Assembly: GCA_965215265.1 (NCBI GenBank)
Contig: OZ244048.1
Coordinates: 1,248,001 to 1,312,000, forward strand
Direction: 5' to 3'
DNA from: Candidatus Poribacteria bacterium
GTDB lineage: Bacteria > Poribacteria > WGA-4E > WGA-3G
DNA length: 64,000 nt
The notes beneath the pieces are model-generated. The model was not told where the DNA came from. It saw nothing but the letters and a program-made list of their open reading frames with translations, and made no database searches. The first letter of the stretch is position 1. Every line of letters begins with the position of its first letter. Positions 1,620 to 28,528 of the stretch are shown in pieces. Position numbers and translations under genes: made by a program.

Positions 1620-1739
1620 GGTTCGTATATCTCCGTACGATCAACGCCCAGTGGGTTGCGAGATAGGTATTCTTTCTCGCAACTTATGTAATAATAACTC
1701 GTGTGTAAATCTCGTCGGAGATGACTTAGATAATGTCTT
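1620..1739 (-). repeat. 84-bp dispersed element (reverse copy) carrying a nested 36-bp hairpin element at 1648-1683
   Basis: TTCGTATATCTCCGTAC...CTCGTGTGTAAATCTCGTCGGAG; 28+56 bp = 84 after removing the insert. Confidence 0.8.
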
Positions 1740-1742
1740 TAA

Positions 1743-1826
1743 AAATCAAAACATCAAAAGGCTCTGGCGAGATTTGTAAAGGGTTTAACATTGCAGCAGC
1801 CTTTAGCGGGCTCCTGTAGACGAAAA
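1743..1826 (+). repeat. 84-bp dispersed element (subtype B)
   Basis: Aligns ungapped to the other copies: AAATC..AACATC..CTCTGGCGAGATTT..GCAGCAGC..TAGACGAAAA. Confidence 0.8.
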
Positions 1827-1831
1827 TAGGA

Positions 1832-3550
1832 TTAATTTCCGTGTGAATGTTCGCCTTCCTTAATGCGGAGATGCTGGTTCGGTTTTATGTTTTGGAGGAT
1901 GTCCACGGTGCCGCTTGGCCAGACAACATCAATTTTCTCAATCGTGCTGTCAGTATTTATGCCGAAGATAGCAGTGAATTCACTCTGGGAGCAGTAGCTT
2001 GAACCGCTCTTGACGGTTTTTGTCTGTGTTCTGCTCGGTGAGGTGAGGTGAATCTGTGTACCGATTCCGTCTCTATTACTTTTTTTGCCGATGAGTTGTA
2101 TTTTAATCCATGCATTTCGGTTTCCGCCATCGTTACGGAAAAGATGGGCGGGCCCATTGGAACTCGTGATGAGTAAATCCCAGTCGCCATCGTTATCAAT
2201 ATCTCCATAGGCGGCACCTCTACCGACGATGGGGTTGCCGAGCGCAGTACCAACTTCGGTGCGTGCCTCCCTGAATTTTCCGTTTGCTTGGTTATGAAAG
2301 AGATGTGGTGGTTGTGCGTAGGTGACATCGGTTTGTATGGCGTTAATGTCGGTTTCTACGTGGCCGTTTGCAGTGAAGATGTCAAGATTCCCGTCCAGAT
2401 CGAAGTCGAAGAAGAAGCATGCAAAGGTAAGCGTTAAGAGTGTCGCGTTGCCGATGTGCGCAACTGGGGCATCGTCGATAAAGAAGTCTCCTTCGTTGTG
2501 ATAGAGGTTAATCATTTCATTGGAGAAATTGCCGATAATGAGGCTTTCCCTACCACTGTTGTCGTAGTCGGCGGCATCGATACCCATTGCACCGGTCGCG
2601 ACTCCGTTTTCGTTATAAGCGATTCCGGCGAGCATTGCGGCTTCGATGAAAGTACCGTCGCCGTTGTTCTGGTAGAGTTTATTGGGTTGTGTATCGTTTG
2701 CTTCGAAGATGTCTGGCCATCCGTCGCTGTTATAATCGAAGATGCAAACGCCGAGGGATTTGCTGGTTTTATCCTCAATTCGTGCGATGCGTGAGACATC
2801 AAGGAAAGTGCCGTCGCCACGGTTTCTGAAGAGTTTGCTTGTCTGTCCGGTGTAGGATTCGGGAGTACAATAGGATTTATGTGTGCCGTCTAGGGTGCAA
2901 AAAAGGTCGGTTTCTATGCTCCATTCGACATAGTTCGCCACGTAGAGGTCAAGATGCCCATCTTTATTGTAGTCTACCCATGCACAACTCGTGCCGAATC
3001 CGGGGTTATAAATGCCGGCGTTTTCTGTCACGTCAATGAAGGTGCTATTTCCGCTGTTTTGAAAGAGCCGGTCGTTTTCGAGGCAGCTGATGTAGATATC
3101 CGCATCGCTGTCGTTATCATAGTCAGCAACGGCTATTCCCATGCCGTAGAGTGGGATGTTAAGCCCTACGTTTTCGGTGACATCGATGAAGGTGCCGTCT
3201 CGATTATTACGGTAGAGTGCCATAGTCTGACGTTTTCCGGTTGGGTGTCCTTCCCAATCCTTTCCGTTGACGAGGAGGATATCCATCCATCCGTCGGTAT
3301 CGTAGTCAATAAAGGCACAACCTGAGCCCATTGTTTCGGGCAGGTATTTTTTGCCGAAGGCACCGTTATTGTGGATGAAGTCGATGCCAGCTGTCTGAGT
3401 GATTTCGGTGAATTGCGGCAAGGATTGCGCGCGGCTCGTGAGGGGTGAAGAGATAGTAACAAGCAGCGTGGTTACCATTCCTAATTGAACAGACATAAAC
3501 CAGGTTCGCTGCCAAAATACTTGCGGTGAGATGGGTGCCGTGACGTTCAT
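1832..3550 (-). CDS. CRTAC1-family FG-GAP repeat protein with C-terminal ASPIC/UnbV domain
   Basis: Repeated DYDNDGxxD motifs, NRDGIG, SGSSYCSQ, WPSG. Start placed at ATG 3550 (SD AAGGAA); the ORF-track extension to 3655 reads through a repeat. Confidence 0.9.
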   Translation of the reverse strand: MNVTAPISPQVFWQRTWFMSVQLGMVTTLLVTISSPLTSRAQSLPQFTEITQTAGIDFIHNNGAFGKKYLPETMGSGCAFIDYDTDGWMDILLVNGKDWEGHPTGKRQTMALYRNNRDGTFIDVTENVGLNIPLYGMGIAVADYDNDSDADIYISCLENDRLFQNSGNSTFIDVTENAGIYNPGFGTSCAWVDYNKDGHLDLYVANYVEWSIETDLFCTLDGTHKSYCTPESYTGQTSKLFRNRGDGTFLDVSRIARIEDKTSKSLGVCIFDYNSDGWPDIFEANDTQPNKLYQNNGDGTFIEAAMLAGIAYNENGVATGAMGIDAADYDNSGRESLIIGNFSNEMINLYHNEGDFFIDDAPVAHIGNATLLTLTFACFFFDFDLDGNLDIFTANGHVETDINAIQTDVTYAQPPHLFHNQANGKFREARTEVGTALGNPIVGRGAAYGDIDNDGDWDLLITSSNGPAHLFRNDGGNRNAWIKIQLIGKKSNRDGIGTQIHLTSPSRTQTKTVKSGSSYCSQSEFTAIFGINTDSTIEKIDVVWPSGTVDILQNIKPNQHLRIKEGEHSHGN

Positions 3551-3564
3551 GCTAAACTTTCCTT

Positions 3565-3902
3565 CTTCTGTATACAGGAGCCCAATAAAGGCTGCTGCTA
3601 TGTCAAATCCTGTGTACATCTCGTCGGAGACTTTTGATGCTATGAATCTAAACATCGGAAAACTCCGACGAGATTTTTCGTATATTTCAGCCCAATAAAG
3701 GCTGCTGCTATGTCAAATCCTGTGTACATCTCGTCAGAGACTTTTGATGCTATGAATCTAAACATCGGAAAACTCCGACGATCTATAGATTGGCAGGATA
3801 AGGTAATCTTGTCTCATGGACAGACAAAGCATACCGAACCTGCCAAGATTTACACACGAACTATCAAAGCATAAGCGTTTATGGTACGGAGATATACTAA
3901 AA
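3565..3902. repeat. Cluster of 84-bp elements: reverse 3565-3648, partial forward 3644-3676, reverse 3675-3758, forward 3754-3902 interrupted by a hairpin element (about 3782-3845)
   Basis: Near-identical ~110-bp tandem duplication; GAATC ends shared by back-to-back copies. Confidence 0.8.
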
Positions 3903-3942
3903 ATAGAGGCATTTTGTAAAACCTAAATGCGTTTTGTATCCA

Positions 3943-4659
3943 TCAGCGTTTGATGTAGGGTGCGGCTTGTGCACTGCTCTTAAGGATGCCCCATGTGGTA
4001 GCAAGTTTTCCGCGCGATGCGACGGGACGTGGTTTACCAGGACCTCCGTTGCGGATATTCTGCCCAGTGATTTCGACATCATCAAAACGGGCTTGTCCAT
4101 CTGTTACAACAAGTCCGGCTTGTCCACCTTTTAAGGGTGCATCGTCAATAGTGGTGAACACGTCCTCGTCAACCTTAAATTCCAGGGTGCCATCTTCGTA
4201 AACAGTGGCAGTCAGTTCGTACCACGTATCAATTTCTGCTGAGAACGGGTAGGTGACCCAGAACCAATCATTAGGAAGTGCCTTGACAATTCGGACATAG
4301 CCCAAAAGGTAGTCAATAAAGAATAGATAGCGGGTATCTTCTTCTCCTCTATCGTGGAGGGTAAGTCCAATGCTTGGCGGTTCGTTCTTTTCTTGAACGA
4401 GTTTGGCCCGGCAGGAGAGAGAGTAGTATCTCCATGTGAGCTCTCCAGTGAGCCAGAGGCTCATGAACCCGGGCTGAAAAATTTCACCGACAGCTTCACC
4501 GTCATTAAGCCACCATTTTTCAACCTGCCGGTCAATGTTAAAAATTTTCCATTCGCGAGTGTCTTTGTCTTCAAAGTCGTCTCGCCACGTGCCAGCAATG
4601 CTGAGTGTGTTGAAAATAAGCATCGTGGTGAGAATTGTAAGAATGAGTTGTTTTTTCAC
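3943..4659 (-). CDS. Secreted beta-sandwich (DUF1080/ConA-like) protein with C-terminal VxxRGKLATTWGxLK motif
   Basis: Signal peptide, WRDDFED, GQAGL...RFDDVEI, tail motif. Confidence 0.65.
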   Translation of the reverse strand: MKKQLILTILTTMLIFNTLSIAGTWRDDFEDKDTREWKIFNIDRQVEKWWLNDGEAVGEIFQPGFMSLWLTGELTWRYYSLSCRAKLVQEKNEPPSIGLTLHDRGEEDTRYLFFIDYLLGYVRIVKALPNDWFWVTYPFSAEIDTWYELTATVYEDGTLEFKVDEDVFTTIDDAPLKGGQAGLVVTDGQARFDDVEITGQNIRNGGPGKPRPVASRGKLATTWGILKSSAQAAPYIKR

Positions 4660-4713
4660 AGTTTCTTCCGCTCTCTTGGGGCCGCGGTGCTTGCCGAGGT
4701 TTGGAGAGCCCTC

Positions 4714-7700
4714 CTATGACGTAGTTATTATACATCGTTGGTTGAGATTGTCATCTGCATACGGACAGGAAGGACAATGTGAGGGGTTCTTTAGATAAGT
4801 ACTGAGCTGTAGGCTCGCAATTGTTTCTGTCCAACGGTTGGCAAGTTGCTGTAATTCATTACGACTAAATTGCAAAGGCACCGACTGATTTAGGTGGGTA
4901 AAGAAGAGATTGATGGTCAGTTCTGGTTGTTCGGGATAACTTCGATGCACAAGCAAGGCATAAAGTTCCACTTGAGGTCGGTTTTCGTCGGTTAAAGCGA
5001 TAAGGCTCTCTTCGCCTGAATGCTCATCTACCGAGCTCAGAAGCGATGAAGTCATTCCTAATTTATCTACTGTACCAATTGTTTTGTAATCAATAGCCTG
5101 CCAGTGCCCTGTTGTTGGATGCTTAAAAAGCCGGTCGATTCTCCCGCCGATAATGTGTTCGCCAAGTTGTATGTGAATTTGTCGTTCGCAATAGGTTTGC
5201 TCAGATACGAGTGCAATTTGCCCAAGCTCAGACGTGAGAAACGCGTTGACATTTTCGCGGATGTCACTTCTGATGGATTCTTTGTAGTATTGTATTAGCC
5301 TCTCAAGTTGTCGGACATCGGTTTTCTGCCTGATTTGAGAGAGGATGTAGTGAACAGCACGCCCTGTTTCGGTCTCATCCCAATCCGGTGTGTCGGGTTG
5401 ATTCTGCGCTGTGCTGGGTTGGATAAATTCATTGCACTCGTCATTAATAGGGCGAATCGGGGGAATCCTAAGTACATTTTCAAGGTGGTACCGTAGCGGG
5501 CAACGAGCATAGTTGGAAAGTTCTGGGACGGAGAAGTATGCACCGGTAGTGCTTGGTGACAGCGGGGGTGCCGGAAGTTGTGACAATTCAGGCGAAATGA
5601 TTTCAGCCTGATTGGAGGCCGGTTCTGCGCTTTCTGGGAGGCACCGAATGATTGGGATTTCCAAGTTGAAGTGTTGTTGCTTTGTGCTGTTATCAGAAAA
5701 CGCCTCCAATTCAACAGGGATGCTGAGAGAAGTTTGTTGAGATAAACCGAGGTGTGTGCAGAGCGATTTTAGCATGCTTCGCGGTTTTTGGCTGTCGAAT
5801 AGGGTTCCGGATAAGATAAGCCGGTCGCTTGCGCGCGTTGTTCCAACGTAGAAAATTCGCTTCTTTTCGGCATCTGCTTTTGCGTTTGCGCGATTTTTCA
5901 TGAGTTTGATGATGCTTGGGTCACGTTTCTTGTAATCGTCATCTGGGTTAAGTGAAGTAAACCCGATGCCGCACTGTTCATCGATGAAAGGTTCCGTTTC
6001 AATTTGTCCACGTCTGTCAAGTCCGGGCAGAACCACTATTGGGAATTGAAGGCCCTTTGCTGCATGGATAGTCATTATTTGAACTGCTGTTCTATTCGCC
6101 TGAATTGGTGCTTGTCCTTCGCGGGGTTCCTCGTCCATTAAGATTGCCAGAAAATCAATAAAGCGCGTCAAGGTTTGGCTTCCGTCAAGGTTTGCATCCT
6201 CCTGCTGGAAATTTCGTGCGAGGTCTAATAGTTTTTGATAATTCGCCCATCTTTGTTGTCCTTGTGGTCCTGCTGTGATTGTTCCGATGATTCCTGTTTC
6301 CTGAACGATGGTTAAGATAAGTTGGTTTATCGGAATTCGTTGTGCAAGTTGTAGATGTTTTTTCAGGAGGCCTACTGCGAGCTGGAGGTTTTGTGAAGAT
6401 ATTTCGCTTTCGTCGGAGAGTTTTTTGCGAGGATTTTCCGGTGTTCCAATAACGTTATCTTGGGTGACTAGGTTTTGTAGACGCGCTTCAGTCTTCTCCC
6501 AAAAGCTGTCGCCGTGTTGCAGAGAAATCTCGTAGAGTTCCGTGTCGGAGATGCCGAAGAACGGGCCGCGTAAGATAGCGGCAAGTGCAACGTGGCTTTC
6601 AATGGGGGCATCTAGGAATTGGAGGTAGTTCCAAATATCGTAGATTTCTTGCCGCTGATAGAACCCGATACCGCCTGTGGTCAGGTAGGGTACCCCTTTG
6701 TCAAGAAGTGCGCGTTCAAGGTCGGGTAGATGTGTTCGATTACGGATGAGGATGGCGATGTCCCCGTATTCGATTTGACGTAAGCTTTCTCCATTTTCGT
6801 CTCGGTTGATAACAGCTACTTTTTCCGTTATCATGTTTTTTATACGGGTTGCGATGAGTTCATTTTCATTGACTCGTTCCTCACCTTTGTTGCCCAAAAT
6901 AATTTCTATGCTGCCATTTGCTACTGCCGATTCTGCTTCTGTCCCTAAAGGGGCGGTTCGTGCTTGGACGAGAGGTTCATACGCGACTTCAAATTCGCTT
7001 TCAGTTCCTTCATGCATCAACCGTTGAAAAAAGTAATTGACAAATCCGACATCATCGCGTAGTGAACGAAAATTCTCACTGAGGCTAACAGCCATGCCGT
7101 TGGATTCACAGATTTTTTCTCGGGTCTGGTTAAAAACGCGAATATCGGCACCGCGAAATCCGTAAATTCCTTGTTTCACGTCGCCAACGATGAAAAGATT
7201 TCCGTGTTGGAGTTTGTTCGTCAACAGCATGACAAGTTCAAACTGCAGCGGGTTTGTGTCTTGATATTCATCTATCATGAAGTATTTATAGCGGTTTTCC
7301 AAGGTCCGGCGAATCTCTTTATTCTCTTTGAGTAATTCCCGGGTTTTGAGCTGCAGGTCGGTGTAGTCCAGTTTGCCTTGTTCCAATTTCGCGCGTTGAT
7401 AGGCGGTTTCTATGTGGGTGTAGAGAGCCAGTAGGTGTCTGGTTGTCTGAATGAGTGCATCGTCATCGTCGTTAATCGGAGGCGTATTTCGGAGTTCTTT
7501 AGCAGCAGATCCAAGGAAGTTAATTTCGCTTTCGATGGCGGTTATATCGGTTCCCTTCCCGAGGAAATAATTTTTGGCAATTTTGCCGCTTTTGTTGAGA
7601 ATTAACTTTTCAATTTTTCGCAGTTGTTGCAGCTGCGTCGGTTTTGCGATGTCTGTATTCAGATTTGCTGTTAATTGGTCTGTTAGATTCCTAATTTCTG

Positions 7701-8430: not shown

Positions 8431-8444
8431 TTTTCCTCTGTAAG

Positions 8445-9527: not shown

Positions 9528-9596
9528 AGTTCATAATGTCTCCGTAGGCTAGCGAATTTGAAGGGCAAAAATTGCTTGTGTTCTTAGGTAATTGAC

Positions 9597-10466: not shown

Positions 10467-10476
10467 TTTAGAGGTT

Positions 10477-11892: not shown

Positions 11893-12019
11893 TCTCTTTC
11901 TCCGTGGCTTCTCTATCTCTTTTTTCTATAACTTTAGTATAGCATGCAATGGAATTGTAGTCAAACTTTTTTGTGGATACTCACTTACCCCCATTTTTTT
12001 TCAAGGTTTGGCGTGAATT

Positions 12020-12192
12020 GAATCTAAACATCCGAACCCTCCGACGAGATTTGTACAGGGTTTTACATAACAAACGCCTCTATTGGGCTGCAGTAGACGA
12101 AAAGACGAGATTTGTAAAGATTTCAGAAAAACAGACTGCTTTAATGAACGCCTTAGCACAAATCTCGCTAGAGATTTACGTTGTTATGATTC
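12020..12192. repeat. Two 84-bp elements in opposite orientation (12020-12103 forward, 12109-12192 reverse)
   Basis: Ungapped alignment to consensus; CGAGATTTGT...ACAAATCTCG inverted arms. Confidence 0.75.
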
Positions 12193-12208
12193 AATACATC
12201 TAAGTCAG

Positions 12209-12377
12209 GCAAAAAAAAGTTTGCCAAAAAGTGTTGTTTTCGGCTAAAATGTGTTCGTCTCTTTTTTATTTCGAAAAAAAAGAGTTGACAAAAAATGTTC
12301 ATTGTGCGATAATGCAAAACAACTTTTGAGTTATGCAAAAAAAAGTTTGCCAAAAAGCGTTGTTTTCGTCTAAACTG
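12209..12377 (+). repeat. 43-bp direct repeat pair (12209-12251, 12335-12377) flanking a promoter
   Basis: GCAAAAAAAAGTTTGCCAAAAAGYGTTGTTTTCGKCTAAAMTG twice, 3 mismatches. Confidence 0.85.
12285..12313 (+). promoter_or_regulatory. Sigma70-type promoter for the 13.0-16.6 kb block
   Basis: TTGACA-N17-GATAAT with extended -10 TG. Confidence 0.6.
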
Positions 12378-12382
12378 AAAAA

Positions 12383-12466
12383 TACGAAAAACCGCGAAAA
12401 TCTCCGTCGAGATTTGTAAAAAGATACTCATTAAATCTGTCGGTGATGCGCTGAAAGATACGAGAA
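12383..12466 (+). repeat. Diverged 84-bp element
   Basis: CTCCGTCGAGATTTGT and ATACGAGAA fall at the consensus positions. Confidence 0.55.
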
Positions 12467-12680
12467 CTCGAAGAGATGAAACACCGAGAGTCCGTGTATC
12501 CCATAAGTAGAGTGAGCTGCCCTGTGCTGCGGGGTTGGCATCTTTGCGCGAACGCGTGCATATACCGTGCTGTCGTGTGTTTTAACTGCCTGTTAAGACG
12601 ATTGATCCCCCCCCCGACTTTACGTACGTTAACCATTTTATTAACTCAAGCCGCATCACCCTTAGTCGCTGCTTTCTTAC

Positions 12681-12730: not shown

Positions 12731-12999
12731 CTGATGCGTGCGGCACCCCTTGTCGGAGCCCCGGGCTTCTGTGTGCGGGTACGCCTGTAACAAACCGAGT
12801 CGGCTTATGTCAAAGGTGCCGGGGCGACACTCGCCCGGCACCCTACCGTGGGCTCGTATTGGCTATTCACCTATTTGTGCGTGGACAGCGTGCTTCGGCA
12901 CGCCTGCCCACCCGCAATCAAACCGATAACGACTTATAAACCTAACCGGTGCGATAACCGCATCGACAACGGACACATCGTCCGAAAGGATATTTTGAA

Positions 13000-13608: not shown

Positions 13609-13720
13609 AGGGAGAGGGATGTGTAAGGGGGTGTGTGCCGTCTGCGTTTGACGCGGCGGTCTCGCCTCCAACCCCTCGTATTTTTAGCCGCGAGTGTTTC
13701 GCGGCATTTGGAGGACTGTA

Positions 13721-16594
13721 ATGTGTCATAAAAAAGTTTCAAAGGTTTGGAGGGCTGTAATGTCCGCTAAAAAAGTTTCAAAGGTTTGGAGGGCTGTAAT
13801 GAATAATAAAAGCGTGTCAGTGATGTTAGCCATATTGGCGTGTATAGTTTTGAGTTTGGGTGGTTTGGGTGATGTGTGTGCGCAAGGGGTAAGCGTGGCT
13901 GCGGATGTCGGTGTGCTTTCGGCTGTGAAAGGTGATGCGGATGTGAATGGTGATGGCCGTGTGGATATAGTGGATTTGGCACTGGTAGCGGCGCACCTGG
14001 GAACCCGCGGTAACAGTTCGGCAGATTTGAACGGGAATAGTGTAGTGGATATAGGGGACGTGGCGTTAGTAGCGGCGGGGTTTAACGGTGCAGCGTCTGC
14101 ACCTGCGGCGCAGGTGTCTGCGCCTGCAGGGATGGTGCTCATCCCCGGCGGCACCTTCCAGATGGGCAGCAACGATGCCGAGGCCGCTGGTGAAGAGCAG
14201 CCTGTGCATCTGGTGCATGTGGACGCGTTCTATATGGATACGCACGAAGTGACGAACGCCGAGTATAAAAGTTTTGTGCTGGCGAATCCCGAGTGGCAGA
14301 AGGGGCGTATTTCGGCTGCCTTCCACAGCGGTAAGTACCTAAAACATTGGAACGGTAATAACTATCCAGCGGGTAAAGGGGACCATCCTGTGACGTATGT
14401 GTCGTGGTATGCGGCGATGGCATATTCTGCTTGGGCAGGGAAGCGTCTGCCAACGGAGGCAGAGTGGGAGTATGCGGCACGCGGTGGGGAGGCAGGTCTG
14501 AAGTATCCGTGGGGAAATACGATATCCCCTGCGAACGCGAACTACGATAGGAATGTAAACGATACAACGGCTGTGGGGAGTTATGCTGCGAACGGGTATG
14601 GGCTGTTCGACATGGCCGGGAACGTGTCGGAGTGGTGTCTGGACGAGTATAATGCGGCATTTTATGCTGCGTCTCCGTCTAATAATCCGCTGAGTGGTGT
14701 GTCTGGTAGTCTGCTCGCGAATCTGGATGAGATTGTATCGGACTACACAGGCGTAAATGTGAAGTCACTGCGGGTGTTGCGGGGTGGTAATTGGCGTGCT
14801 GATGTGCGTCACCTGCGCGTCGCCGATAGGTTCAAGAGTGTGCTGACGTTCACGAAAAAACACACCGGGTTTCGTTGTGTGAGTGCAGTGCCGGCGGAGC
14901 CACCCACACCGGAGCCTGAGCCACCCACACCGGAGCCTGAGCCACCCACACCGGAGCCTGAGCCACCCACAACGGAGCCTGAGCCACCCACACCGCAGGC
15001 ACCTGCAAGGATGGCACTCATCCCCGCGGGCACCTTCCAGATGGGCAGCAACGATGCCAAGGCCGATGGTGACGAGCGGCCTGTGCATACGGTGTATGTG
15101 GACGCGTTCTATATGGATACGCACGAAGTGACGAACGCCGAGTATAAAAGTTTTCTGCTTGCGAATCCCGAGTGGCAGAAGACGCATATTCCGGATGCCT
15201 TTCATGATGGTAATTATCTAAACCATTGGGACGGTAATAACTATCCTGTGGGTAAGGGGGACCATCCTGTGGGGTATGTGAGTTGGTATGCGGCGATGGC
15301 ATATTCCTTCTGGGCAGGGAAGCGTCTGCCAACGGAGGCGGAGTGGGAGTATGCGGCACGCGGGGGGTTAGTTGGTAAGAAATACCCGTGGGGAGACACG
15401 ATAACGCCGAACGATGCGAACTACGGTAGGAATGTAGGGGACACTCGTCCTGTGGGGAGTTATGCGGCAAACGGGTATGGGCTATATGACATGGCGGGGA
15501 ACGTTTACGAGTGGTGTCTTGATCTGTATGATCGGAATTTCTATTCTCGTTTGCCGTCTAGTAATCCGCTGAATGGTGTGTCTGGCAGTACGCTCACGAA
15601 TCTGGATGAGCTCGCGAATCTGGATGAGATTGTGGATATAAATGTTAACTCTGAGCGCGTGTTGCGTGGCGGTAGCTGGTCCTTTGATTCACTCTTCCTG
15701 CGTGCCGCTAATCGCCGCGGGGATACCCCTACGGACACCAATAATCGCCGCGGGGATACCCCTACGGACACCAACGGCAGCTACGGTTTCCGGTGTGCGT
15801 GGGCTGTTACTCCTTCCGTGCCGCCAGCACTAGTAGGGATGGCACTCATCCCCGCGGGCACCTTCCAGATGGGCAGCAACGATGCCGAGGCCGGTGGTGA
15901 CGAGCAGCCTGTGCATACAGTGTATGTGTACCCGTTCTATATGGATACGCACGAAGTGACGAACGCCGAGTATAAAAGTTTTGTGCTGGCGAACCCCGAG
16001 TGGCAGAAGACGCGGATTCCGGATGCCTTCCATAATGGTTTTTACCTGTTCCATTGGGAAGGTAATAACTATCCAATGGGTAAGGGGGACCATCCTGTGG
16101 TGCATGTGTCGTGGTATGCGGCGATGGCATATTCCGCGTGGGTAGGTAAGCGTCTGCCAACGGAGGCGGAATGGGAGTATGCGGCACGCGGGGGGTTAGT
16201 TGGTAAGAAATACCCGTGGGGAGACACGATAACGCCGAACGATGCGAACTACGGTAATAATGTAGAAGATACCCGTCCTGTCGGGAGTTATGCGGCGAAC
16301 GGGTATGGGCTATATGACATGGCCGGGAACGTGTGGGAGTGGTGTCTGGATGCGTATAATGGGGCATTTTATTCTGCGTCTCCGTCTAATAATCCGCTGA
16401 GCGGTGTGTCTGGCAGTACGCTCGCGAATCTGGATGAGATTGTAGATAACTATGAAAATGTACCTGTTACCCCCCGTCGCGTGTTGCGCGGCGGTAGCTG
16501 GTCCTTTGATTCACGAAGCCTGCGCGCCGCTTTTCGCCACAGGGATTCCCCTTTGGGCCCGGGCGTCACCTTCGGGTTCCGGTGTGTGCGGTAG
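13721..16594 (+). CDS. Secreted protein: dockerin-like EF-hand pair plus three tandem FGE-sulfatase (CLec-fold) domains; alternative starts 13721, 13760, 13799
   Basis: DVNGDGRVDIVDL and DLNGNSVVDIGDV; three copies of RLPTEAEWEYAARGG...DMAGNV.EW...RVLRGG.W...GFRC; the catalytic FGE cysteine pair is not evident. Confidence 0.9.
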   Translation: MCHKKVSKVWRAVMSAKKVSKVWRAVMNNKSVSVMLAILACIVLSLGGLGDVCAQGVSVAADVGVLSAVKGDADVNGDGRVDIVDLALVAAHLGTRGNSSADLNGNSVVDIGDVALVAAGFNGAASAPAAQVSAPAGMVLIPGGTFQMGSNDAEAAGEEQPVHLVHVDAFYMDTHEVTNAEYKSFVLANPEWQKGRISAAFHSGKYLKHWNGNNYPAGKGDHPVTYVSWYAAMAYSAWAGKRLPTEAEWEYAARGGEAGLKYPWGNTISPANANYDRNVNDTTAVGSYAANGYGLFDMAGNVSEWCLDEYNAAFYAASPSNNPLSGVSGSLLANLDEIVSDYTGVNVKSLRVLRGGNWRADVRHLRVADRFKSVLTFTKKHTGFRCVSAVPAEPPTPEPEPPTPEPEPPTPEPEPPTTEPEPPTPQAPARMALIPAGTFQMGSNDAKADGDERPVHTVYVDAFYMDTHEVTNAEYKSFLLANPEWQKTHIPDAFHDGNYLNHWDGNNYPVGKGDHPVGYVSWYAAMAYSFWAGKRLPTEAEWEYAARGGLVGKKYPWGDTITPNDANYGRNVGDTRPVGSYAANGYGLYDMAGNVYEWCLDLYDRNFYSRLPSSNPLNGVSGSTLTNLDELANLDEIVDINVNSERVLRGGSWSFDSLFLRAANRRGDTPTDTNNRRGDTPTDTNGSYGFRCAWAVTPSVPPALVGMALIPAGTFQMGSNDAEAGGDEQPVHTVYVYPFYMDTHEVTNAEYKSFVLANPEWQKTRIPDAFHNGFYLFHWEGNNYPMGKGDHPVVHVSWYAAMAYSAWVGKRLPTEAEWEYAARGGLVGKKYPWGDTITPNDANYGNNVEDTRPVGSYAANGYGLYDMAGNVWEWCLDAYNGAFYSASPSNNPLSGVSGSTLANLDEIVDNYENVPVTPRRVLRGGSWSFDSRSLRAAFRHRDSPLGPGVTFGFRCVR
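14897..14995 (+). repeat. 21-bp tandem repeat (about 4.7 units) encoding an EPPTPEP linker
   Basis: GAGCCACCCACACCGGAGCCT repeated. Confidence 0.95.
15710..15775 (+). repeat. 33-bp in-frame tandem duplication (NRRGDTPTDTN x2) in the domain-2 C-terminal loop
   Basis: AATCGCCGCGGGGATACCCCTACGGACACCAAY twice. Confidence 0.95.
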
Positions 16595-16608
16595 GCTTAT
16601 GAGCAGCG

Positions 16609-16676
16609 AAAGATAAAACCAGAGGTGTGATGGTGAGTAGGCCGTGTGCCAAATGCCATCACATCTCTTTCTCTTT
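16609..16676 (+). repeat. 68-bp hairpin-forming direct repeat, copy 1 (terminator-like)
   Basis: Matches 18001-18068 with 6 mismatches; GAGGTGTGATGG/CCATCACATCTC stem followed by a T-rich tail. Confidence 0.85.
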
Positions 16677-16700
16677 TTTCTCCGCCTGATTTATCTCTGC

Positions 16701-16729: not shown

Positions 16730-16790
16730 AAAGACAGAGTCGTTTTGAGAAGGGAAGCACTTGACAACTCATACGTTTTAGGAGTCTAAT

Positions 16791-17867
16791 ATGCAGAAAG
16801 GGGACATCCACGACTTTTTGTCCGAGATGTCTGTTTCGAACTTTTCCGATCGGAGTATACGCCGCTTATTAGAAAACAGGGAAAACGTCCGGGGCTTGTT
16901 AGAAATCGTGTCGGCAGAACTCGCCGAACTGATTGATTTTGAGCATCTGGTTCTAATCAATAGGAGTCTACTGCCCGCCACTCTCCGAGAACAAGAGGCA
17001 GACATTGTGTATCGGGTGCCCTTCAAAAGTGATACGGATGAGGGTGGTGAGGAGCTGCTCCTCTATCTACTGATTGAACATCAATCGACGGTAGATGCGA
17101 CGATGGGGTTTCGTGTGCTTTTCTACATGATGCTGATTTGGGACGCGGAGCGGCGGCGGTGGGCGGCCGAGAAGGTGCGGAGAAGAGAGCGTGTATTGCC
17201 GCCGATTCTGCCCGTGGTGTTTTACACGGGGGAGCGGCGGTGGGAAAAGCCACTGACACTTGAGGCGATGATGAATCTGCCCGCGGCGCTCTCTAGATTC
17301 GTTCCGAGATTTGACATCCTGTTTCTGAATCTGAACCGCACAGACAAGGCAACGCTGACAGAGGCGGCGCATCCGTTCGGATGGCTGATGAGAGTGCTGC
17401 AGCAAGGAGATTCGGACAAAGCGTCTATAAGCCGCGCGTTAAAAGAGACTTTGACGCAGTTGGAGACGCTTGATGCGGCGGATTCTGGGCAGCGTCGGGA
17501 AGCGATAATGTATCTAGTATCGCTGATTCAGCATCAGCGTCCAAAGGAAGAACAAGAAGAGTTGATAGAACTGGTAGACCGGCATACGCGTGACATGGAG
17601 GTAGCACCGATGGCAGAGACAATGGCCGAATTCCTCTTCGAACGAGGCATAGCACAAGGCATAGAACGAGGCATAGAAAAAGGGGCGTGCCAGACGGCTA
17701 TCAAAAATATAACCGCCGTCCTCAACGCGCGATTTCCTCATTGTGACATACACACTGCCACGCAGCAACTCGAAACGCTTTCTAACCTAGAACACCTCGA
17801 GCACCTGCTGCTGACAGCCGTCAAAGCCGACAGTTTTGAAGCATTCCTACAAGCTTTAGAACTATAG
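16791..17867 (+). CDS. Rpn/YhgA-like PD-(D/E)XK nuclease (recombination-promoting nuclease / putative transposase)
   Basis: ADIVYRV, YLLIEHQSTVD..MGFR.L.Y, LPPILPVVFYTGE..W, C-terminal ERGIAQGIERGIEKG. Confidence 0.9.
   Translation: MQKGDIHDFLSEMSVSNFSDRSIRRLLENRENVRGLLEIVSAELAELIDFEHLVLINRSLLPATLREQEADIVYRVPFKSDTDEGGEELLLYLLIEHQSTVDATMGFRVLFYMMLIWDAERRRWAAEKVRRRERVLPPILPVVFYTGERRWEKPLTLEAMMNLPAALSRFVPRFDILFLNLNRTDKATLTEAAHPFGWLMRVLQQGDSDKASISRALKETLTQLETLDAADSGQRREAIMYLVSLIQHQRPKEEQEELIELVDRHTRDMEVAPMAETMAEFLFERGIAQGIERGIEKGACQTAIKNITAVLNARFPHCDIHTATQQLETLSNLEHLEHLLLTAVKADSFEAFLQALEL
17610..17867 (+). CDS. Putative internally initiated RpnS antitoxin (85 aa, in frame)
   Basis: GGAGGT SD followed 8 nt later by in-frame ATG (MAETMAEFL...). 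Confidence 0.6.
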   Translation: MAETMAEFLFERGIAQGIERGIEKGACQTAIKNITAVLNARFPHCDIHTATQQLETLSNLEHLEHLLLTAVKADSFEAFLQALEL

Positions 17868-18000
17868 AAACGCACGCGCCGAACGCCATGGCCGGCACCG
17901 GGCTGCTCTTGTCGGGGTGTCAGGTAGGAACCCTACCGTTATTATGCCCTCTGACAAGCGGAGCATGGAAGGTTGCGTACTATACCGTGTGAGATGAGCC

Positions 18001-18068
18001 AAAGATAAAACCCGGGGTGTGATGGTGAGTCGGCCGTGTGCCGAATGCTATCACACCTCTTTCTCTTT
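18001..18068 (+). repeat. 68-bp direct repeat, copy 2
   Basis: See 16609-16676. Confidence 0.85.
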
Positions 18069-18288
18069 GAGGCGATACCGATTTCTCAGCCTGATTCCTG
18101 ACGAAATGAAAAAGGTTGCTTGAAAAAACGAAATAGGGTAAAATTATATTGAGAAATAGAAACGGTTGTTACTTTAAACTCCAAATTTACGTTGATTAAT
18201 GGCAAAGGACATGAAAAATCTCATGTGAGATTTTCACTCTATTGTTCGCGCTTCAAGAGCCTTACCGAGTTAATAGATATAGAACATT

Positions 18289-19906: not shown

Positions 19907-20139
19907 TGAAACGGTAGTAGGGCAACGGTCTAAGTTTTGTGAGAAATAGTAGTAGATTCGTCAAGTTATTTTTTTTCGGGGTGTCTAACAACCACACCCA
20001 AGCAGGAACAGGACAGGTCTTGAAATTGAAATTTAATTATATCAACACTGTAATAAACTAAGCGTCCGTTTGCCTTGCGTGAACTGAAAACTTAAATCTG
20101 CTTACATCAATCAGGTAATAGTCACAATGTCTGTTAAGG

Positions 20140-21492: not shown

Positions 21493-21630
21493 GTTTTCGT
21501 CTCTTGCTTTATATTATATAAACGGGCAAGGCAAAGTTCTAAAGGGCGCTAAATTCTTTTCTGACATGCCTTGTGGATGTAAAAAAAATTAGAACGGTTA
21601 TAGGGATTATAAAAGATAACGGAGTATTGC

Positions 21631-23199: not shown

Positions 23200-23323
23200 T
23201 TTTTGTACATCTTTTTTCCCTAAGGGCACCCAAAAGGATGGATTTATGTGTTGATATAGATTTGTGTAAAAACATATTTTTTCTCTTAATTAGCATTGTA
23301 CGCCTTAACCAATTTATAAAAAA

Positions 23324-23590
23324 ATGGAACGTATTAATCCTGTTTTCTGGGCCCCGCCAGCGGTACATAAGATAAGCGTTGATTGGGAGAAAACGGTTCG
23401 GGAGCAAGGCGGGGATCCTGCCGAGATTGAGAAGCTTGCGAGAAAAGTGGTTGAAGAATCATAACCCAGTGAGGCTCTGACGAGATTTACACACGAGTTA
23501 TCAAAACATAGACGTTGATGGTACGGAGATATACGAAAGAGCGTAGAAGTTATCATACGCTACTACACTGCAAAAATTATGAAAGGATAA
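23324..23590 (+). pseudogene. Small (60 aa) ORF interrupted by an 84-bp element at 23456-23539
   Basis: MERINPVFW...ARKVVE | element (brings TAA) | SVEVIIRYYTAKIMKG*; removing 84 bp gives one open frame ending just before the M23 gene. No clear SD, so the gene is tentative. Confidence 0.55.
23456..23539 (+). repeat. 84-bp dispersed element (subtype A)
   Basis: GAATCATAAC...CTCTGACGAGATTTACACACG...GTACGGAGATATACGAAAG. Confidence 0.9.
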
Positions 23591-23598
23591 TTGATTGG

Positions 23599-24570
23599 AT
23601 GTATACACTCATTGTTATGTCATCTGGTGGTAAGTCAGTACGTCAGCATGCAATTACTCATTGGCACGTGCTGCTCTTCGCTGTTTTAATCTTTGCAGCG
23701 GTTGTTGGAACCTTTGGTGGTATCGGTTACGGGCTATTCCAAAAAAAGAGAGAGATGCGGGCTGAAGCCGAGTTACAGAAAAGTTTGGAGAGAATTGAAA
23801 GCTTAGACCGGGAAAGGCTTATCATTAACACCAAGCTTGAGAACGTTGAAGAGGAGATGCAAAATATCCGCGAGATGGCTAACAAGGTTAAGGAGGGATT
23901 AGGCATCCTCGGACAAGGTGGTGGCATTCATGACCCCGTATCGGTATCAGAAAACGGATCTGATTTTTGGGCGGATAATGGTTCAGAAGTCGTTGAGTCC
24001 GATTCGTATTATAACGAGGTGGCATCACCGTTAATACCGGATCAAGTGCGTGAAGAAATTTTACCTCTGTACGATTACGTTGTTACGTACGAAAAACTTC
24101 TTAATGAATATCCTTCAATCCTGCCAATTCAACTTGAAAGTAAAACTGGAGCGGAGAAGCAGAGGTACGTTTTTTGGTATTCCTCGCGTTTTGGCATGCG
24201 CGTCCACCCGTTAACGCGTAAACGTGAATTTCACTACGGCTTGGACATTAAAACCCGTTCCGGCGCACCTGTTATTGCTGCTGCTGCTGGGTTCATTACG
24301 AAGGTTACAAGAGATCCTTATCTAGGAAAAATGGTTGAGGTTCACCACAAATCGCAAAAACTGAAAACGATATATGCGCATTTGAAAGACTACGCTGCAG
24401 GTCTTAAAAAAGGACAGGAAGTGAGCCGCGGACAGATTATTGGTTATGTAGGCAGTACTGGGCGTAGCACGGGGCCTCATCTACACTATGGCGTTTATGA
24501 TACGCGGAGAGGGAAGTGGGTGAATCCGATTGGCTACATTCTCGATCAGCAACCAACTTTTTCGCCTTAA
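23599..24570 (+). CDS. M23 family metallopeptidase with TM helix and coiled coil
   Basis: FG.R.HP...FHYGLDI, YAHL, G.VGSTGRSTGPHLHY. Confidence 0.9.
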   Translation: MYTLIVMSSGGKSVRQHAITHWHVLLFAVLIFAAVVGTFGGIGYGLFQKKREMRAEAELQKSLERIESLDRERLIINTKLENVEEEMQNIREMANKVKEGLGILGQGGGIHDPVSVSENGSDFWADNGSEVVESDSYYNEVASPLIPDQVREEILPLYDYVVTYEKLLNEYPSILPIQLESKTGAEKQRYVFWYSSRFGMRVHPLTRKREFHYGLDIKTRSGAPVIAAAAGFITKVTRDPYLGKMVEVHHKSQKLKTIYAHLKDYAAGLKKGQEVSRGQIIGYVGSTGRSTGPHLHYGVYDTRRGKWVNPIGYILDQQPTFSP

Positions 24571-24577
24571 GGTTCAT

Positions 24578-26008
24578 GTGAACGCAGTACGACATCATTG
24601 GCTCTGCTTTATTGTTGTTCCGGTAGTGTGCCTGTTTGTTCACGTGGATGCAGTTTTAGCCGGGTGGGTTTCTTCACCTTCAGAGAATCTTCCGCTTTGT
24701 ACGGCCCTGAATGAACAACACTTTCCGGTACTGACAAGCGATGGCACAGGTGGTGCCATTATGACTTGGAGTGATGCGCGGGCGGAGAACCGGGATATTT
24801 TTGCCCAGCGCGTGAGTGCAAGCGGAGAGATGCTCTGGAACGCCGACGGTATCCCGGTTTGTGATACACCAGCATCACAAAGCTGGCCGCTGATTGTTAG
24901 CGATGAAGAGGGTGGGGCTATCATCGTTTGGGGAGATACACGTTACGGTAATCAAGACATCTACGCACAGCGTATTGACACAAACGGGCTCAAACAGTGG
25001 GTACGTGAAGGCGTTTCTGTTTGCACCGAGCCCGCTTTACAAGATGGATTGAAAGTTATTGCTGACGGTGAGGGTGGCGTAATTGTTACGTGGGAAGATT
25101 GGCGCAACGGAAATCAGGATATCTATGCGCAAAGAATTAGTGGAACTGGGGTGCCGTTGTGGGAGGCGAATGGTGTGCCGGTTTACAAAGGCGTGGGGGA
25201 TCAGTACGACCCGGTTTTAATAGCAGATACGATGGGCGGCGCGATTTTCGCTTGGTGGGATATCAGTACTCCGGATTGGAACATTTTCGCGCAGCGTCTG
25301 TCGGCAAATGGCACGCCTATGTGGGGTTTGGCTGATGGCGTCGATGCTCGTTCTAGGGCGATTCCTGTTTGCACAGCCATGGGCAACCAAGGCGGTCCTG
25401 CTGTTGTAGGTGACGAGAAAGGTGGCGCTTTTTTCGTCTGGTCTGACTACCGCAACGATCCGAATTTCTACACGACTGCACAGCTGTACGCGCAGCGTAT
25501 TAGTTCAGCAGGTGTCGCGCAGTGGCAAAAAGACGGCATCCCGATTAGTACGTTACCTTACAATCAACAACAACCTGCTTGTGTCGGCGACGGAGCAGGG
25601 GGTTTCATTGTGGTTTGGTGGGATGAGCGTGATGTTTTCGCGGACATCTATGCTCAGCGTGTCAATGCTGAGGGTACAGTGCACTGGGCGATAGAGGGTG
25701 TGCCTGTATGTACTGGAGCAGGTGTACAGCGCGAGCCGCAGCTAGTCGCCACAGGTGATGGCGGTGCAATTGTCTACTGGCTAGATTATCGAGAAGACTT
25801 TGGCGATTCGACTGAGGATGCTATTTACGCGCAGCGCCTTGATGCAACAGGTACAGTATTGTGGGAAATGGATGGAATGCCTGTCTGTACAGCGAGCAAA
25901 GAGCAACGGAGCCCGCAGGCTATCGCCTCTGGTGATGGCAGCGCGATTATCATCTGGAGCGATGCTCGTGGGGCAGATGACGATATCTATATTCACCGTG
26001 TCCCATAA
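24578..26008 (+). CDS. Secreted repeat protein (GGAIIxWxDxR...DIYAQR repeats, probable beta-propeller)
   Basis: About 7 repeats of DG.GG.I..W.D.R....DIYAQR; signal peptide. Confidence 0.75.
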   Translation: MNAVRHHWLCFIVVPVVCLFVHVDAVLAGWVSSPSENLPLCTALNEQHFPVLTSDGTGGAIMTWSDARAENRDIFAQRVSASGEMLWNADGIPVCDTPASQSWPLIVSDEEGGAIIVWGDTRYGNQDIYAQRIDTNGLKQWVREGVSVCTEPALQDGLKVIADGEGGVIVTWEDWRNGNQDIYAQRISGTGVPLWEANGVPVYKGVGDQYDPVLIADTMGGAIFAWWDISTPDWNIFAQRLSANGTPMWGLADGVDARSRAIPVCTAMGNQGGPAVVGDEKGGAFFVWSDYRNDPNFYTTAQLYAQRISSAGVAQWQKDGIPISTLPYNQQQPACVGDGAGGFIVVWWDERDVFADIYAQRVNAEGTVHWAIEGVPVCTGAGVQREPQLVATGDGGAIVYWLDYREDFGDSTEDAIYAQRLDATGTVLWEMDGMPVCTASKEQRSPQAIASGDGSAIIIWSDARGADDDIYIHRVP

Positions 26009-26337
26009 TAATTATTTTTCGCTAATTGTCCTAACCTTCCTGCAAGTATACTCTGTAAATACCGCCTCGGGAAATCACTCCTCACAGTCAGCCGGTTGAC
26101 GGAGATATCGCGATGTGGAGAACATGCCGACATTTTCTATGAACAGGTTGCTCTGCTCGCGCGAAAACCTTTATGCTGAGTCGCCGGTTGATAGGCGATG
26201 AATCGCCCTATGACAAATCTACCGTATCCAAACCAATGGCCGGCCAGGGTGTACTCCTCATTCCATTATCAGGTGCCTCCGGCACGAGGTGATGGAAAGG
26301 TTCTGCCCCCGCAAGTGGAGGGCGAGGCAGAATAGTC

Positions 26338-28440
26338 TTAGCTATTTGTCAATTCGGCGAGTTTGGTTAGATGCCAATTGACATCCTCTAATGCCTCATA
26401 AACGACCCCACCTTCAACGTTCTCAGGCATTGGGAGTCCGAGTAAGTAGCAGAGAGTTGGGGCGACATCGACGACGCGAACTTGCCGCTTGAGTGCGATG
26501 CCTTCTCTAACGCCGGCTCCCGATAAAATAAACGTGGAGTGTTGTCCGCCAATGCCGAAACTTACAGAGGGTAATTGCTTGCCATGCGCGCCGTCAAACT
26601 CGGGTCTAAGTGCGTAGACTACGTCTCCGACTAACTCTCCGTGTAGGTTCAACATTTCTGCATCGGCACGCGTTACAGCTAATGTGAAGGGCTGTCGCCC
26701 TGTTTCTGGATCTTGGTAAGCGTGAAGTGCGTCGATAATTTCGCGCTGAGTTGCTTCATAGGCTTCCAGTGTAACGATGCCGTTGGGTTCGCGGCCGGCT
26801 AGATTGATAAAGATATGCACGAGTCCGACGTTGACAGCGCGCGTTTTCGTCCAGTCTATTTCCCCGTCTGTCGTTCGGACGATGAAGCCTGTTTCTTCGA
26901 GGACCTTTTCAATATCAACGGCTTTAAATTGGTTAGGTGTGCCGCCGTGGTCTGAGCAGACGAGGATAACGGTGTTTTCATCGGCGAGCTGCATCAAACG
27001 TCCAATCATCCTATCAACAGATTCATAAGTACGGCGGATTCCTTCGCGGCAGCGGTGGATGGTTTCTGGTGCGGCACCACTAATTTCATCGGCTTGGCTG
27101 AGGAAGAAATGGCTGGCGTAATCGGGTGCATGGGATTCAACCATGAGGACATCCCAATTGTTGATTGTTGCGAGGTGCGTTGCAACATCCGCGAGCCGTT
27201 GATGGTGGTATTCAAGAAGTTCAAAATAGGTATCGTCATCGATCTGACCGAGCGCGTCGCGTGCCGGATTTTGAAGGAAAGAGCCGACCTCGGCATCAAT
27301 CTGGACTGCTACTGTTGAAGGCACGGTGTATTCTTCTCGTGGCCAAACCTGTGGTACGAACAGCTCAAAGGCATCCGCAGTCGGTGTGAGGGTGATAAGC
27401 TTCAGGCGGACGTAACCTTCAACCTCTTTTCCGTCAATCTCATTAGAATCATAACATCGGAACCCTCTGACGAGATTTACACACGAGCCATCAAAGCAGA
27501 AGCGTTGACAGTACGGAGATATACAAAAAAAGGTATCGAGCCACCAATCGCTCCAGTCGCCTACACTGAGTTCTGCGATTCGCTCTGCTCCGGAACGGCT
27601 TCGGCAGATCTGTATTTTGTCGTATCCGTTTTTTCCAGAGGCATATATGAATCCATACGAGACTATACCTAAGGAACCTCCGACGAGATTTACACACGTT
27701 TTATCATAGCATCAGCATTGACGGTACTGAGCTATACGAAAAAACGTTTTGGGTGTTCCTGTTTCGCCGCGGTTCATCTCTTCTCTACCGCGTGCTAGGG
27801 GTTGGATAGTGAGTTCAACTTCCAGGACTGGCTTTTCCGATTTAGGCAAGCGATTCGCTTCGGCACTGTTGGCCAGTTGGAGTGTCACCGCATCTATGTG
27901 GCGTACTTTCTGTAATGCACTCGGATCTAAGGTTTCTGGGTCTCGTTGGCCACCGATAGGGCGCGGTGCCCATTTTCCTGCGACAAAGAGGTGATATCCT
28001 GCAATTTGATGATGGTTTGAGACACCGGGGCCGGTTCCTTCTACCTGAATTCCGGTTTTGACGGTTGGTGGCCAGGACATTTCCCACTTAACAAAGATCG
28101 GTTTTCCGCCGGCACGTTCAACAAGATTCCAGAGGTATTCGGATTGACATAGAGCCGTGTTGATTCCCCAGACGGTTTTGTCGAGTTTTTCGCCGATTGC
28201 TCTGATATTGAAGTCCATGACCTGATGCGTCCCGGGCCATGAGCCTGTGGAGAGAGCGGTCCAACCGGGTGGGGTAAGTGTTGGGAAGAACCCGATCATC
28301 GGTCGGTACACCCCAGTCTGTAGCAGCTGCGCCATATTGGGGGCATGTCCCCAGTCAATGGAATTTTTGACGAGTTCCATGCTGGCACCGTCCATTCCGA
28401 TAATAATTGCGCGTTTTGCAGGTGCGAGTTGTGTCCGCAT
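26338..28440 (-). CDS. Alkaline-phosphatase-superfamily phosphodiesterase/nucleotide pyrophosphatase; one reading frame with two in-frame 84-bp inserts and a single TGA (27712-27714) inside one insert
   Basis: IIIGMDGAS, PTLTPPGW..LSTG, CSDHG, VDVAPTL. ORF-track pieces 27712-28440 and 26338-27324 are in the same frame and the 129 codons between them are open. Confidence 0.85.
27446..27529 (+). repeat. 84-bp element inserted in frame in the phosphodiesterase gene
   Basis: Reads FCISPYCQRFCFDGSCVNLVRGFRCYDS in the gene frame. Confidence 0.9.
27659..27742 (+). repeat. 84-bp element inserted in frame, contains TGA
   Basis: Reads FRIAQYRQC*CYDKTCVNLVGGSLGIVS in the gene frame. Confidence 0.9.
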
Positions 28441-28444
28441 ATTA

Positions 28445-28528
28445 GAGTCAATACATCAGGAGCCTCCGACGAGATTTACACACGAGCTGTCAATACCTAA
28501 GCGTTGATGGTACGGAGATATACAAAAA
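28445..28528 (+). repeat. 84-bp element between the SD and the ATG of the phosphodiesterase gene
   Basis: Minus strand AAAAGGAGCAA|element|TAAT ATG. Confidence 0.9.

Follow-up and report, generated by a model that had tools for sequence, protein, structure and literature searches.

Short repeats of 84–87 bp without the usual transposon end marks have moved into genes in a Candidatus Poribacteria genome

Results

Twelve near-full copies and three fragments of one repeat family

The DNA analysed here (the window) is a 64,000-nucleotide stretch of contig OZ244048.1 from a Candidatus Poribacteria bacterium (GCA_965215265.1). Between positions 1620 and 28528 it contains a repeat family of 12 near-full copies and three fragments, together with an AlkP/phosphodiesterase gene (26338–28440, minus strand) that was hit by three copies and is otherwise not decayed. 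The first-pass annotation had listed 12 coordinates; a copy is present at 12 of 12, those at 1620, 3565, 3675 and 12109 being on the minus strand, and the three fragments are additions to that list. An exact left-end pattern occurred at 8 places and a looser one at 12, each against 0.00 expected from 100 shuffles of the sequence.

A subtype-1 copy at 1620–1739 (−), bearing a 36-bp REP-like hairpin insert (1647–1682), stands head-to-head, across a 3-bp gap, with a subtype-2 copy at 1743–1826 (+). The subtype-2 copy at 3565–3648 (−) has GAATC (3644–3648) in common with a truncated plus-strand partner, a left fragment of columns 1–33 (3644–3677) that is cut at the invariant core and lies within a 110-bp tandem duplication. 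A further subtype-2 copy at 3675–3758 (−) shares GAATC (3754–3758) with the subtype-1 copy at 3754–3902 (+), which has a 65-bp hairpin element in its core (3782–3846). The single subtype-2 copy at 12020–12103 (+), whose left segment is nearest to subtype-1 copies (84%), is abutted by a core fragment of columns 24–39 (12104–12119, +). Two copies are diverged: 12109–12192 (−), with a replaced outer end and with GATTC in common with a partner copy truncated to its left end (12188–12207, +; read by eye), and the chimeric 12383–12466 (+), with a replaced left end. The others are single subtype-1 copies on the plus strand. One, at 23456–23539, apparently interrupts a putative small ORF starting at 23324; a homologue of this ORF was sought and none was found, so that there is no empty allele for the site. 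The remaining three, at 27443–27529, 27658–27741 and 28445–28528, are those of the AlkP gene; copies elsewhere lie in either orientation relative to genes. Ten copies are located within about 4.4 kb of non-coding DNA. Copies often land in other copies.

Uniform spacing and block-wise variation

The copies had been described as a gap-free alignment of invariant 84-bp length. With the 36-bp and 65-bp inserts skipped, all 12 fit 84 columns, but homology is solid for only 10: compensating gaps improved the alignment in 19 of the 21 pairs involving 12109 or 12383, the copies with replaced ends (score gain 2–24), as compared with 13 of the 45 pairs without them (gain 1–5). What is invariant is the internal spacing of these 10 copies and not the unit length, which is 84–87 bp for singles and 163 bp for pairs. 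Parsimony places about 115 substitutions and zero indels across the 10 copies, the variation clusters in blocks (runs test, p = 0.005) and the element inserts as a discrete unit. These features bear out the earlier view that the family is not simply a decaying MITE, and because of them the spacing looks selected for an enzyme.

Two interior subtypes are present, as reported. Mantel tests of the left segment against the rest gave r values of 0.00 and 0.04, whereas that of the middle against the right gave 0.70 (p = 0.001); left segments and arms reassort against the remainder of the element. The proposed 42-bp half period is indeed the best offset, but once corrected for the search it is of marginal significance (40% identity, p = 0.051), and concerted change between the halves was not supported (p = 0.15–0.40). 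DGR-type adenine-specific mutagenesis was rejected, with subtype-1 variation of 0.15 at A, 0.10 at C, 0.18 at G and 0.15 at T. We also considered that the interior might act as a guide, as its 7–8-mers match the copy's own right flank in three simple copies (permutation p = 0.058); this was rejected on the basis of an unselected test (p = 0.06–0.65 per copy).

Ends, flank motif and core

In agreement with the first-pass annotation, single copies have no terminal inverted repeat (TIR; 1–8 of 15 terminal matches among the 12 copies) and no clear target-site duplication (TSD), the five singles showing only 2–3-bp matches at four different boundaries. A one-sided host motif, based on 10–12 sites, adjoins the outer end, reading 5′-WCSWNY and then the element on the minus strand; the outer flank of 1743 fits it. 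WC occupies −6/−5 in 8 of the 12 copies (search-corrected p = 0.0025), and in 8 of 10 when two copies joined to other copies are set aside (0 of 400 random sets). No strict or fixed target tetranucleotide was found in the flanks. The hexamer that closes the element beyond the axis has a pyrimidine as its last base in four of the five singles and in none of the four distinct pair arms (by eye, post hoc). One of the five singles has a C|T boundary at each end (by eye).

About 20 nt from the end opposite the flank motif lies a CTC-N4-GAG core. The ATCTC-GTCG-GAGAT hairpin noted previously retains its 3-bp CTC/GAG arms in 12 of 12 copies, but its full 5-bp stem in only 4 of 12, even with G-T allowed; all copies have this one 3–5-bp stem, and no palindrome was found at the outer end. 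The tag 5′ of the palindrome is GTGT in eight copies, TTAC in two, and GTAC and GCAC in one each. The WCSWNY motif, the invariant core and the reassorting left segments are new beyond the earlier observation. GANTC was rejected as a host target or methylation signal, being neither over- nor under-represented (238 vs 247); at 27446 (the copy at 27443–27529) the sequence belongs to the insert.

Head-to-head pairs, folding and copies in outside proteins

The back-to-back pairs were confirmed: three window pairs overlap in GAWTC and one has its members 3 bp apart. A subtype-1 and a subtype-2 copy that are head-to-head and share the central GAWTC make a 163-bp form; pairs have long imperfect inverted arms. 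As single-stranded DNA, the pair axis folded with z-scores of −6.6/−5.8 (3615–3677) and −2.3/−0.6 (1700–1780). Singles did not fold more stably than shuffled sequences (z = −0.55 to +1.5; five copies, both strands), and the alignment contained no compensatory pair (0 among four predicted and seven named pairs), contrary to the suggestion that the element is an RNA-processing substrate. An Rfam search returned only tRNA and no family for the element.

A full HMM protein search yielded seven proteins, two true element carriers and five short repeat matches, and a peptide-profile word search gave 233 candidates, none of which scored. One outside protein, P0124, is a methylase whose gene contains a 54-codon subtype-1(−)/subtype-2(+) pair, which is the 163-bp form; in the other, P0127, the reading runs out of one arm into the next. 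In both, a Ser stands two codons ahead of the element, which fits the flank motif provided that a TCN codon is used. Relatives of the P0124 methylase reach only 35–44%, too distant to set its empty allele.

Insertions into the AlkP gene

As had been proposed, copies lie within genes: two are inside the AlkP gene and the third, at 28445, is between its AAGGAG ribosome-binding site and ATG (84 or 87 bp net). The three share one orientation and one reading phase. The AlkP protein of the window has 28 and 29 extra residues at two sites where homologues have only three, within K-x-F-Y-G in 103 of 120 and between WWxD and ID in 100 of 120 (the rest being unparsed). The net insertion relative to these empty homologues is 87 bp at 27446, or 29 codons with no stop, and 84 bp at 27659 (the copy at 27658–27741), or 28 codons with one TGA; no candidate duplication fits the empty allele at either site. 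The gene deviates at 5 of 382 conserved columns, relatives having a median of 3 (n = 83; 23 of 83 as high). These repeat units moved into genes recently, without the usual transposon end marks.

Search for relatives and a cognate enzyme

The window has 110 ORFs of 90 aa or more, and none of them is a Y1/RAYT, IS91, IS110 or tyrosine-recombinase gene, in line with the earlier failure to identify an enzyme here. The Rpn/YhgA gene at 16791 was rejected for this role: the nearest copy is 4.3 kb away and the repeats flanking the gene are unlike the element. A GTDB scan with the left-end pattern, an exact-match search that diverged relatives can escape, gave no true copy; it hit four loci, which we regard as chance because the match is confined to the first 33–35 columns and the taxa are unrelated. 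Blastn of one copy gave no match in plasmids and nothing useful in phages (one 30-bp match, E = 0.7).

Discussion

The element is a non-autonomous mobile DNA that has spread within one lineage, probably of Poribacteria. As to how it moves, we put at about even chances a single-strand, HUH-type transposition, like that of palindrome-associated transposable elements (PATEs) and REPINs/BIMEs, driven by an enzyme whose gene lies elsewhere. An HUH-type transposase (a Y1 enzyme, TnpA/RAYT-like, or an IS91-like one) would recognise the element in single-stranded form by its small core hairpin. It would make one cut at the outer end and another either at the GAWTC axis or just beyond it (in pairs, alternatively at the far arm), and would join the cut strand 3′ of a target that matches loosely. 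The fixed spacing would be a requirement of the transposition complex, recombination between inverted cores would flip the middle of pairs, and the AlkP gene may have been inactivated recently and gathered further copies afterwards. In favour of this mechanism are the insertions relative to empty alleles, the missing TSD, the flank motif, the reassorting left segments and the folding of the pair axis, as well as hairpin repeats nested in copies, amplification in tandem and the formation of heterodimers, as in PATEs, BIMEs and REP dimers. Against it stand the 3–5-bp stem without covariation, the small number of sites (10–12) behind the motif, the lack of a GTAG/CGTC tag, of a strict target tetranucleotide and of a cognate HUH gene in the window, and the 3-bp microhomology loss needed for the 84-bp net insertion at 27659 if the unit is 87 bp. 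In addition, GC skew suggests that the proposed active (−) strand is on the leading-strand template in 5 of 5 singles, opposite to the lagging-strand preference of IS608/ISDra2 reported in PMC3333891.

The first-pass annotation held that a match to a known IS or REP family would speak against its reading. The behaviour of the element is close to that of PATEs and REP doublets, but there is no defining sequence match, and we do not count it as a REP or IS605 member because it lacks the strict diagnostic features of both. PATEs, which are IS200/IS605-derived and known from Haloquadratum, likewise have no TIR, target duplication or transposase, and have a near-terminal palindrome, a conserved terminal oligonucleotide, variability that is highest beyond the palindrome, and small hairpin repeats that invade it (PMC3119063). 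Here, however, the one weak palindrome is not near both ends, the flank motif is degenerate rather than a fixed 4–6-mer, the spacing is very uniform, inverted heterodimers occur and no parent IS was found. REPINs/BIMEs, as described in PMC3116915, PMC3333891, PMC8266576 and PMC3733652, share inverted pairs at fixed spacing and heterodimers of two subtypes. The pair that folds as one hairpin, tandem amplification, mosaicism and occasional in-frame gene insertion are also common to both, and the N4-N2-stem5-loop4 core layout resembles that of group-3 REPs. They differ in the tag (GTAG or CGTC there) and in arm length (20–40 bp there, 84 bp here, with an imperfect stem); REP singlets are reported as remnants, whereas the singles here insert cleanly as units. 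IS91 ends (oriIS/terIS) agree in the absence of TIR and TSD, the one-sided target motif, a terminal cleavage site resembling the target and a variable far end, but the flanks here are not CTTG/GTTC-like (PMC13181058), and two clear subterminal palindromes and a Y2 transposase are missing. Prokaryotic MITEs and Rickettsia palindromic elements are also small, non-coding and multicopy, and insert in-frame into genes (PMC10969869), but the singles here are without TIRs, direct repeats and stable stem-loops.

It is unlikely that a tyrosine (Tn916-like) or serine recombinase moves the element as a minimal double-stranded circle bearing a 3-bp coupling sequence from its last site. In Tn916, coupling sequences are carried from the previous site. 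Such a circle would make 84 bp (8 helical turns) a looping constraint and accords with the A/T runs at outer ends without TSD, the unlike 3-mers on the two sides of 27446, the absence of indels in 10 copies, the 42-bp internal period and a palindromic core suited to a dimer; however, coupling predicts a constant net length instead of 84 and 87 bp, the period reaches only p = 0.051, no recombinase was found in the window, and the 163-bp pairs are not simply explained. Rather improbable, in our estimate, is that the family represents a kind of minimal mobile DNA not described before. Its 84–87-bp unit would have neither TIR nor TSD nor a real hairpin, and the helical spacing would be selected by an unknown enzyme able to move one arm or the 163-bp heterodimer, to invert the dimer middle and to excise precisely enough to restore genes. 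It is quite improbable that a DDE transposase moves the 163-bp pair as a conventional MITE with the outer arms as TIRs, and that singles come from one-ended events at the axis. By definition, MITEs have TIRs and flanking direct repeats (PMC10969869); TIRs are absent from the five singles, whose candidate duplications lie at differing boundaries, and the flank motif occurs on one side only, although the long imperfect arms, a possible 3-bp duplication at 28445 and the 3-bp distance between 1620 and 1743 would suit it.

We give very little credence to the idea that an RNA-guided recombinase moves the element in trans as an IS110-family module, in the manner of the ssr9 minicircles of ISPpu9. In its favour, IS110-group elements have no terminal IRs, form circles, target repeats and can mobilise a transposase-free module (PMC12288879), and the copies here are frequently placed inside other copies. 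Still, no core dinucleotide is common to both ends, the motif is weak and one-sided, the apparent interior-to-flank match fails without selection, and the window has no IS110 gene. Removal of the copies by RNA splicing or precise DNA excision, leaving the AlkP gene functional or switchable, is hardly credible: three copies in one gene with the same orientation and phase, and so few deviant conserved columns, are in its favour, but there is neither conserved RNA structure nor an Rfam match, three copies is a number to be expected for neutral sequence, the phase at 28445 could be chance and other copies lie either way round relative to genes.

For the question of how REPINs/BIMEs and PATEs move in vivo, this family offers dated, scoreable events, in that it has inserted cleanly into conserved genes whose relatives supply the empty alleles. 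The one-sided target motif and two unit sizes make the enzyme findable by one genome-wide search; if a RAYT or IS200-type TnpA adjoins copies, the family is an ordinary lineage-specific repeat. A scarless, cargo-free unit of about 85 bp with loose targeting would interest tool builders.

Insertion of the element into an AlkP-family gene

Three copies of the element lie at one AlkP-family gene (26338-28440, minus strand), which reads through to 700 aa versus 644-645 aa in its closest relatives. Gene content and the NCBI labels of four AlkP homologues indicate Ca. Poribacteria as the probable host. Alignment with 13 of 120 listed homologues reveals clean inserts at two sites, one of 28 and one of 29 residues, and the spacing between anchors at these sites is constant in 103 and 100 of the 120 homologues, the remainder not being parsed. 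The inserts thus correspond to net insertions of 84 bp (copy 27659) and 87 bp (copy 27446), the former bringing in a TGA. The third copy (28445) parts AAGGAG from the ATG; removal of 84 bp leaves a spacing of 7 nt, inside the range of 5-8 nt read by eye from other genes of the window, and removal of 87 bp one of 4 nt. The gene deviates at 5 of 382 conserved columns (median of 3 in 83 relatives, 23 of which are as high). Apart from the insertions it is not decayed, and these are therefore recent. The three copies, 73-82% identical to one another, came from already diverse donors. The element is almost certainly mobile DNA. No common boundary accommodates a target duplication, and single copies have no terminal inverted repeat; the lack of either reported by the first-pass annotation holds for singles.

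The six host bases preceding the outer end, read on the minus strand, follow WCSWNY. WC occupies -6/-5 in 8 of the 12 copies (search-corrected p=0.0025), or in 8/10 without the two that are joined to other copies (random sets, 0/400). Since the motif bases at both AlkP sites are host Thr-Phe codons, they lie outside the element. The motif does not hold for the two joined copies, for copy 28445 or at the distal end of the 1620 pair; nor does it at the distal end of the pair in P0124, an outside protein described below. A hexamer just past the axis, the GAWTC centre of head-to-head pairs, resembles the motif in four of five singles and none of four pair arms (by eye and post hoc); on this reading the unit would measure 87 nt and copy 27659 would have lost 3 bp through microhomology.

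Copies, length and probable exchange between arms

About 12 copies had been counted, and we located all 12, four on the minus strand. An exact left-end pattern matched 8 window sites and a looser one 12 (expected 0.00 from 100 shuffles). An 84-column profile HMM gave no credible copy beyond 28528 (best E 0.83), where non-coding DNA amounts to about 2.5 kb, versus 4.4 kb in the first half. Once the 36 bp nested in copy 1620 and the 65 bp nested in copy 3754 are skipped, the 84 columns fit every copy. The gap-free alignment claimed earlier stands for ten copies but is weak for 12109 and 12383, whose pairs align better with gaps in 19 of 21 cases (gains up to 24), versus 13/45 for the other pairs (gains 1-5). 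Likewise, the strict 84-bp length survives as columns in these ten copies and not as a unit, given the net 84 and 87 bp and the pairs of 163 bp. The ten are 55-90% identical (median 70%; 28 invariant columns), with about 115 substitutions and no indels, an outcome of probability at most 0.02 if the ratio of indels to substitutions is assumed to be 1:30 to 1:10. The six subtype-1 copies vary in blocks (runs p=0.005), without adenine bias.

Both copies share the palindromic GAWTC in the head-to-head pairs at 3644, 3754 and 12188; 3 bp separate the copies of the 1620/1743 pair. Among 1.84 billion proteins, a profile built from three open-frame element translations hit seven, two of them over its whole length. 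P0124 is an adenine-methylase N-terminus broken by a subtype-1 arm followed by a subtype-2 arm, in 54 codons that are exactly the 163-bp shared-axis form; in P0127 a subtype-2 arm runs into the start of the next arm. Neither element is identical to any window copy. All three classifiable pairs combine the two subtypes; by eye, each axis half sits on one arm in P0124 and on the opposite arm in 3675/3754. Distances in columns 1-19 are uncorrelated with the remainder (Mantel r 0.00, 0.04), those of the middle and right segments being correlated (r 0.70, p=0.001); columns 24-33 also hold truncation points and one nested insert. From the swapped halves, the uncorrelated columns and these breaks we infer that arms may exchange at the invariant core, CTC-N4-GAG.

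An RNA-processing substrate, also considered in the first-pass annotation, is not supported: single copies fold no differently from shuffles, the consensus fold consists of the 4-bp core stem only, the suggested covariation check found no compensatory change in it, and the Rfam search yielded only a tRNA and no match to the element. The proposed 42-bp half period is marginal (p=0.051), and the two halves do not change together. An apparent guide match between interior and flank was lost in an unselected test.

Proposed mode of transposition

Single-strand transposition, in which an HUH-type transposase would move the element as single-stranded DNA, is the best fit, and our confidence in it is evenly balanced. 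It draws jointly on the one-sided target, absence of duplication, small subterminal palindrome and variable far end, on the heterodimers in inverted arrangement and the amplification in tandem, and on the REP-like hairpins that have invaded copies. Other readings are kept alive by the weak stem, the lack of a tag, the degeneracy of the target and an orientation that runs against the lagging-strand preference reported for IS608/ISDra2. Movement as a recombinase circle, to which Tn916 coupling sequences form the background, is unlikely; a DDE-mobilised MITE would be distinctly improbable, an IS110 module somewhat more so, and an excision switch very improbable indeed. As the first-pass annotation had it, no cognate enzyme is at hand in the window: no Y1, IS91, IS110, DDE or tyrosine-recombinase transposase is encoded among its 110 ORFs that are 90 aa or longer.

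The element is mobile and works like PATEs and REPINs but falls outside their sequence criteria, for PATEs as described in PMC3119063, whose end tables (Table S9) may bear on membership. Further papers served for comparison: REPINs/BIMEs (PMC3116915, PMC3333891), REP (PMC8266576), REP dimers (PMC3733652), IS91 ends (PMC13181058), prokaryotic MITEs (PMC10969869), IS110-type module mobilisation (PMC12288879) and PMC4853749. Our literature search found no description of the family, which does not prove absence. A GTDB scan returned four hits, all chance; the species represented there thus either lack the family or carry it in diverged form, and it is lineage-restricted.

Other features of the window

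A second, REP-like family consists of GTGG/GTAG-tagged hairpins with variable loops (28639-28720, 31468-31527, 1647-1682, 3782-3846, 12810-12846), two of them nested inside element copies; it suggests that the genome encodes a RAYT outside the window. An Rpn/YhgA-like nuclease gene (16791-17867) was rejected as the cognate enzyme, being flanked by its own, unrelated 72-bp direct repeats (16605-16676, 17997-18068; 90% identical, internal hairpin), with which it looks like a small mobile cassette. Copy 23456 breaks a putative 60-aa ORF (23324-23590) with no homologue found. Cumulative GC skew, whose polarity is the background to reading strand and terminus, peaks at about 47455, possibly the replication terminus, with every element copy on one side.

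Two back-to-back near-perfect sigma-70-type promoters (TTGACA-17-TATACT) occupy 995-1082; the plus-strand promoter looks like the interior of the element (a weak hit to the HMM at E about 1.6) and is perhaps an old domesticated copy, or a coincidence. At 12203-12377, in the 12 kb cluster, a 49-bp direct repeat (90%) surrounds a strong promoter-like site, with no Pfam or Rfam match in the 500 bp downstream. Two tandem type III methyltransferase genes with different middles (42624-46378; common ends of 621 bp at 99% and 679 bp at 95%) precede a single Res gene, a possible specificity-shuffling locus. The sole break in a DUF3179 gene (38455-39606) is an in-frame TGA (context W-stop-P-L-C), which, with selA in the window, makes a selenoprotein probable. 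A single protein (13694-16594) carries three FGE-sulfatase-like domains, whose DNA repeats are 84-86% identical, and a 21-bp tandem linker.
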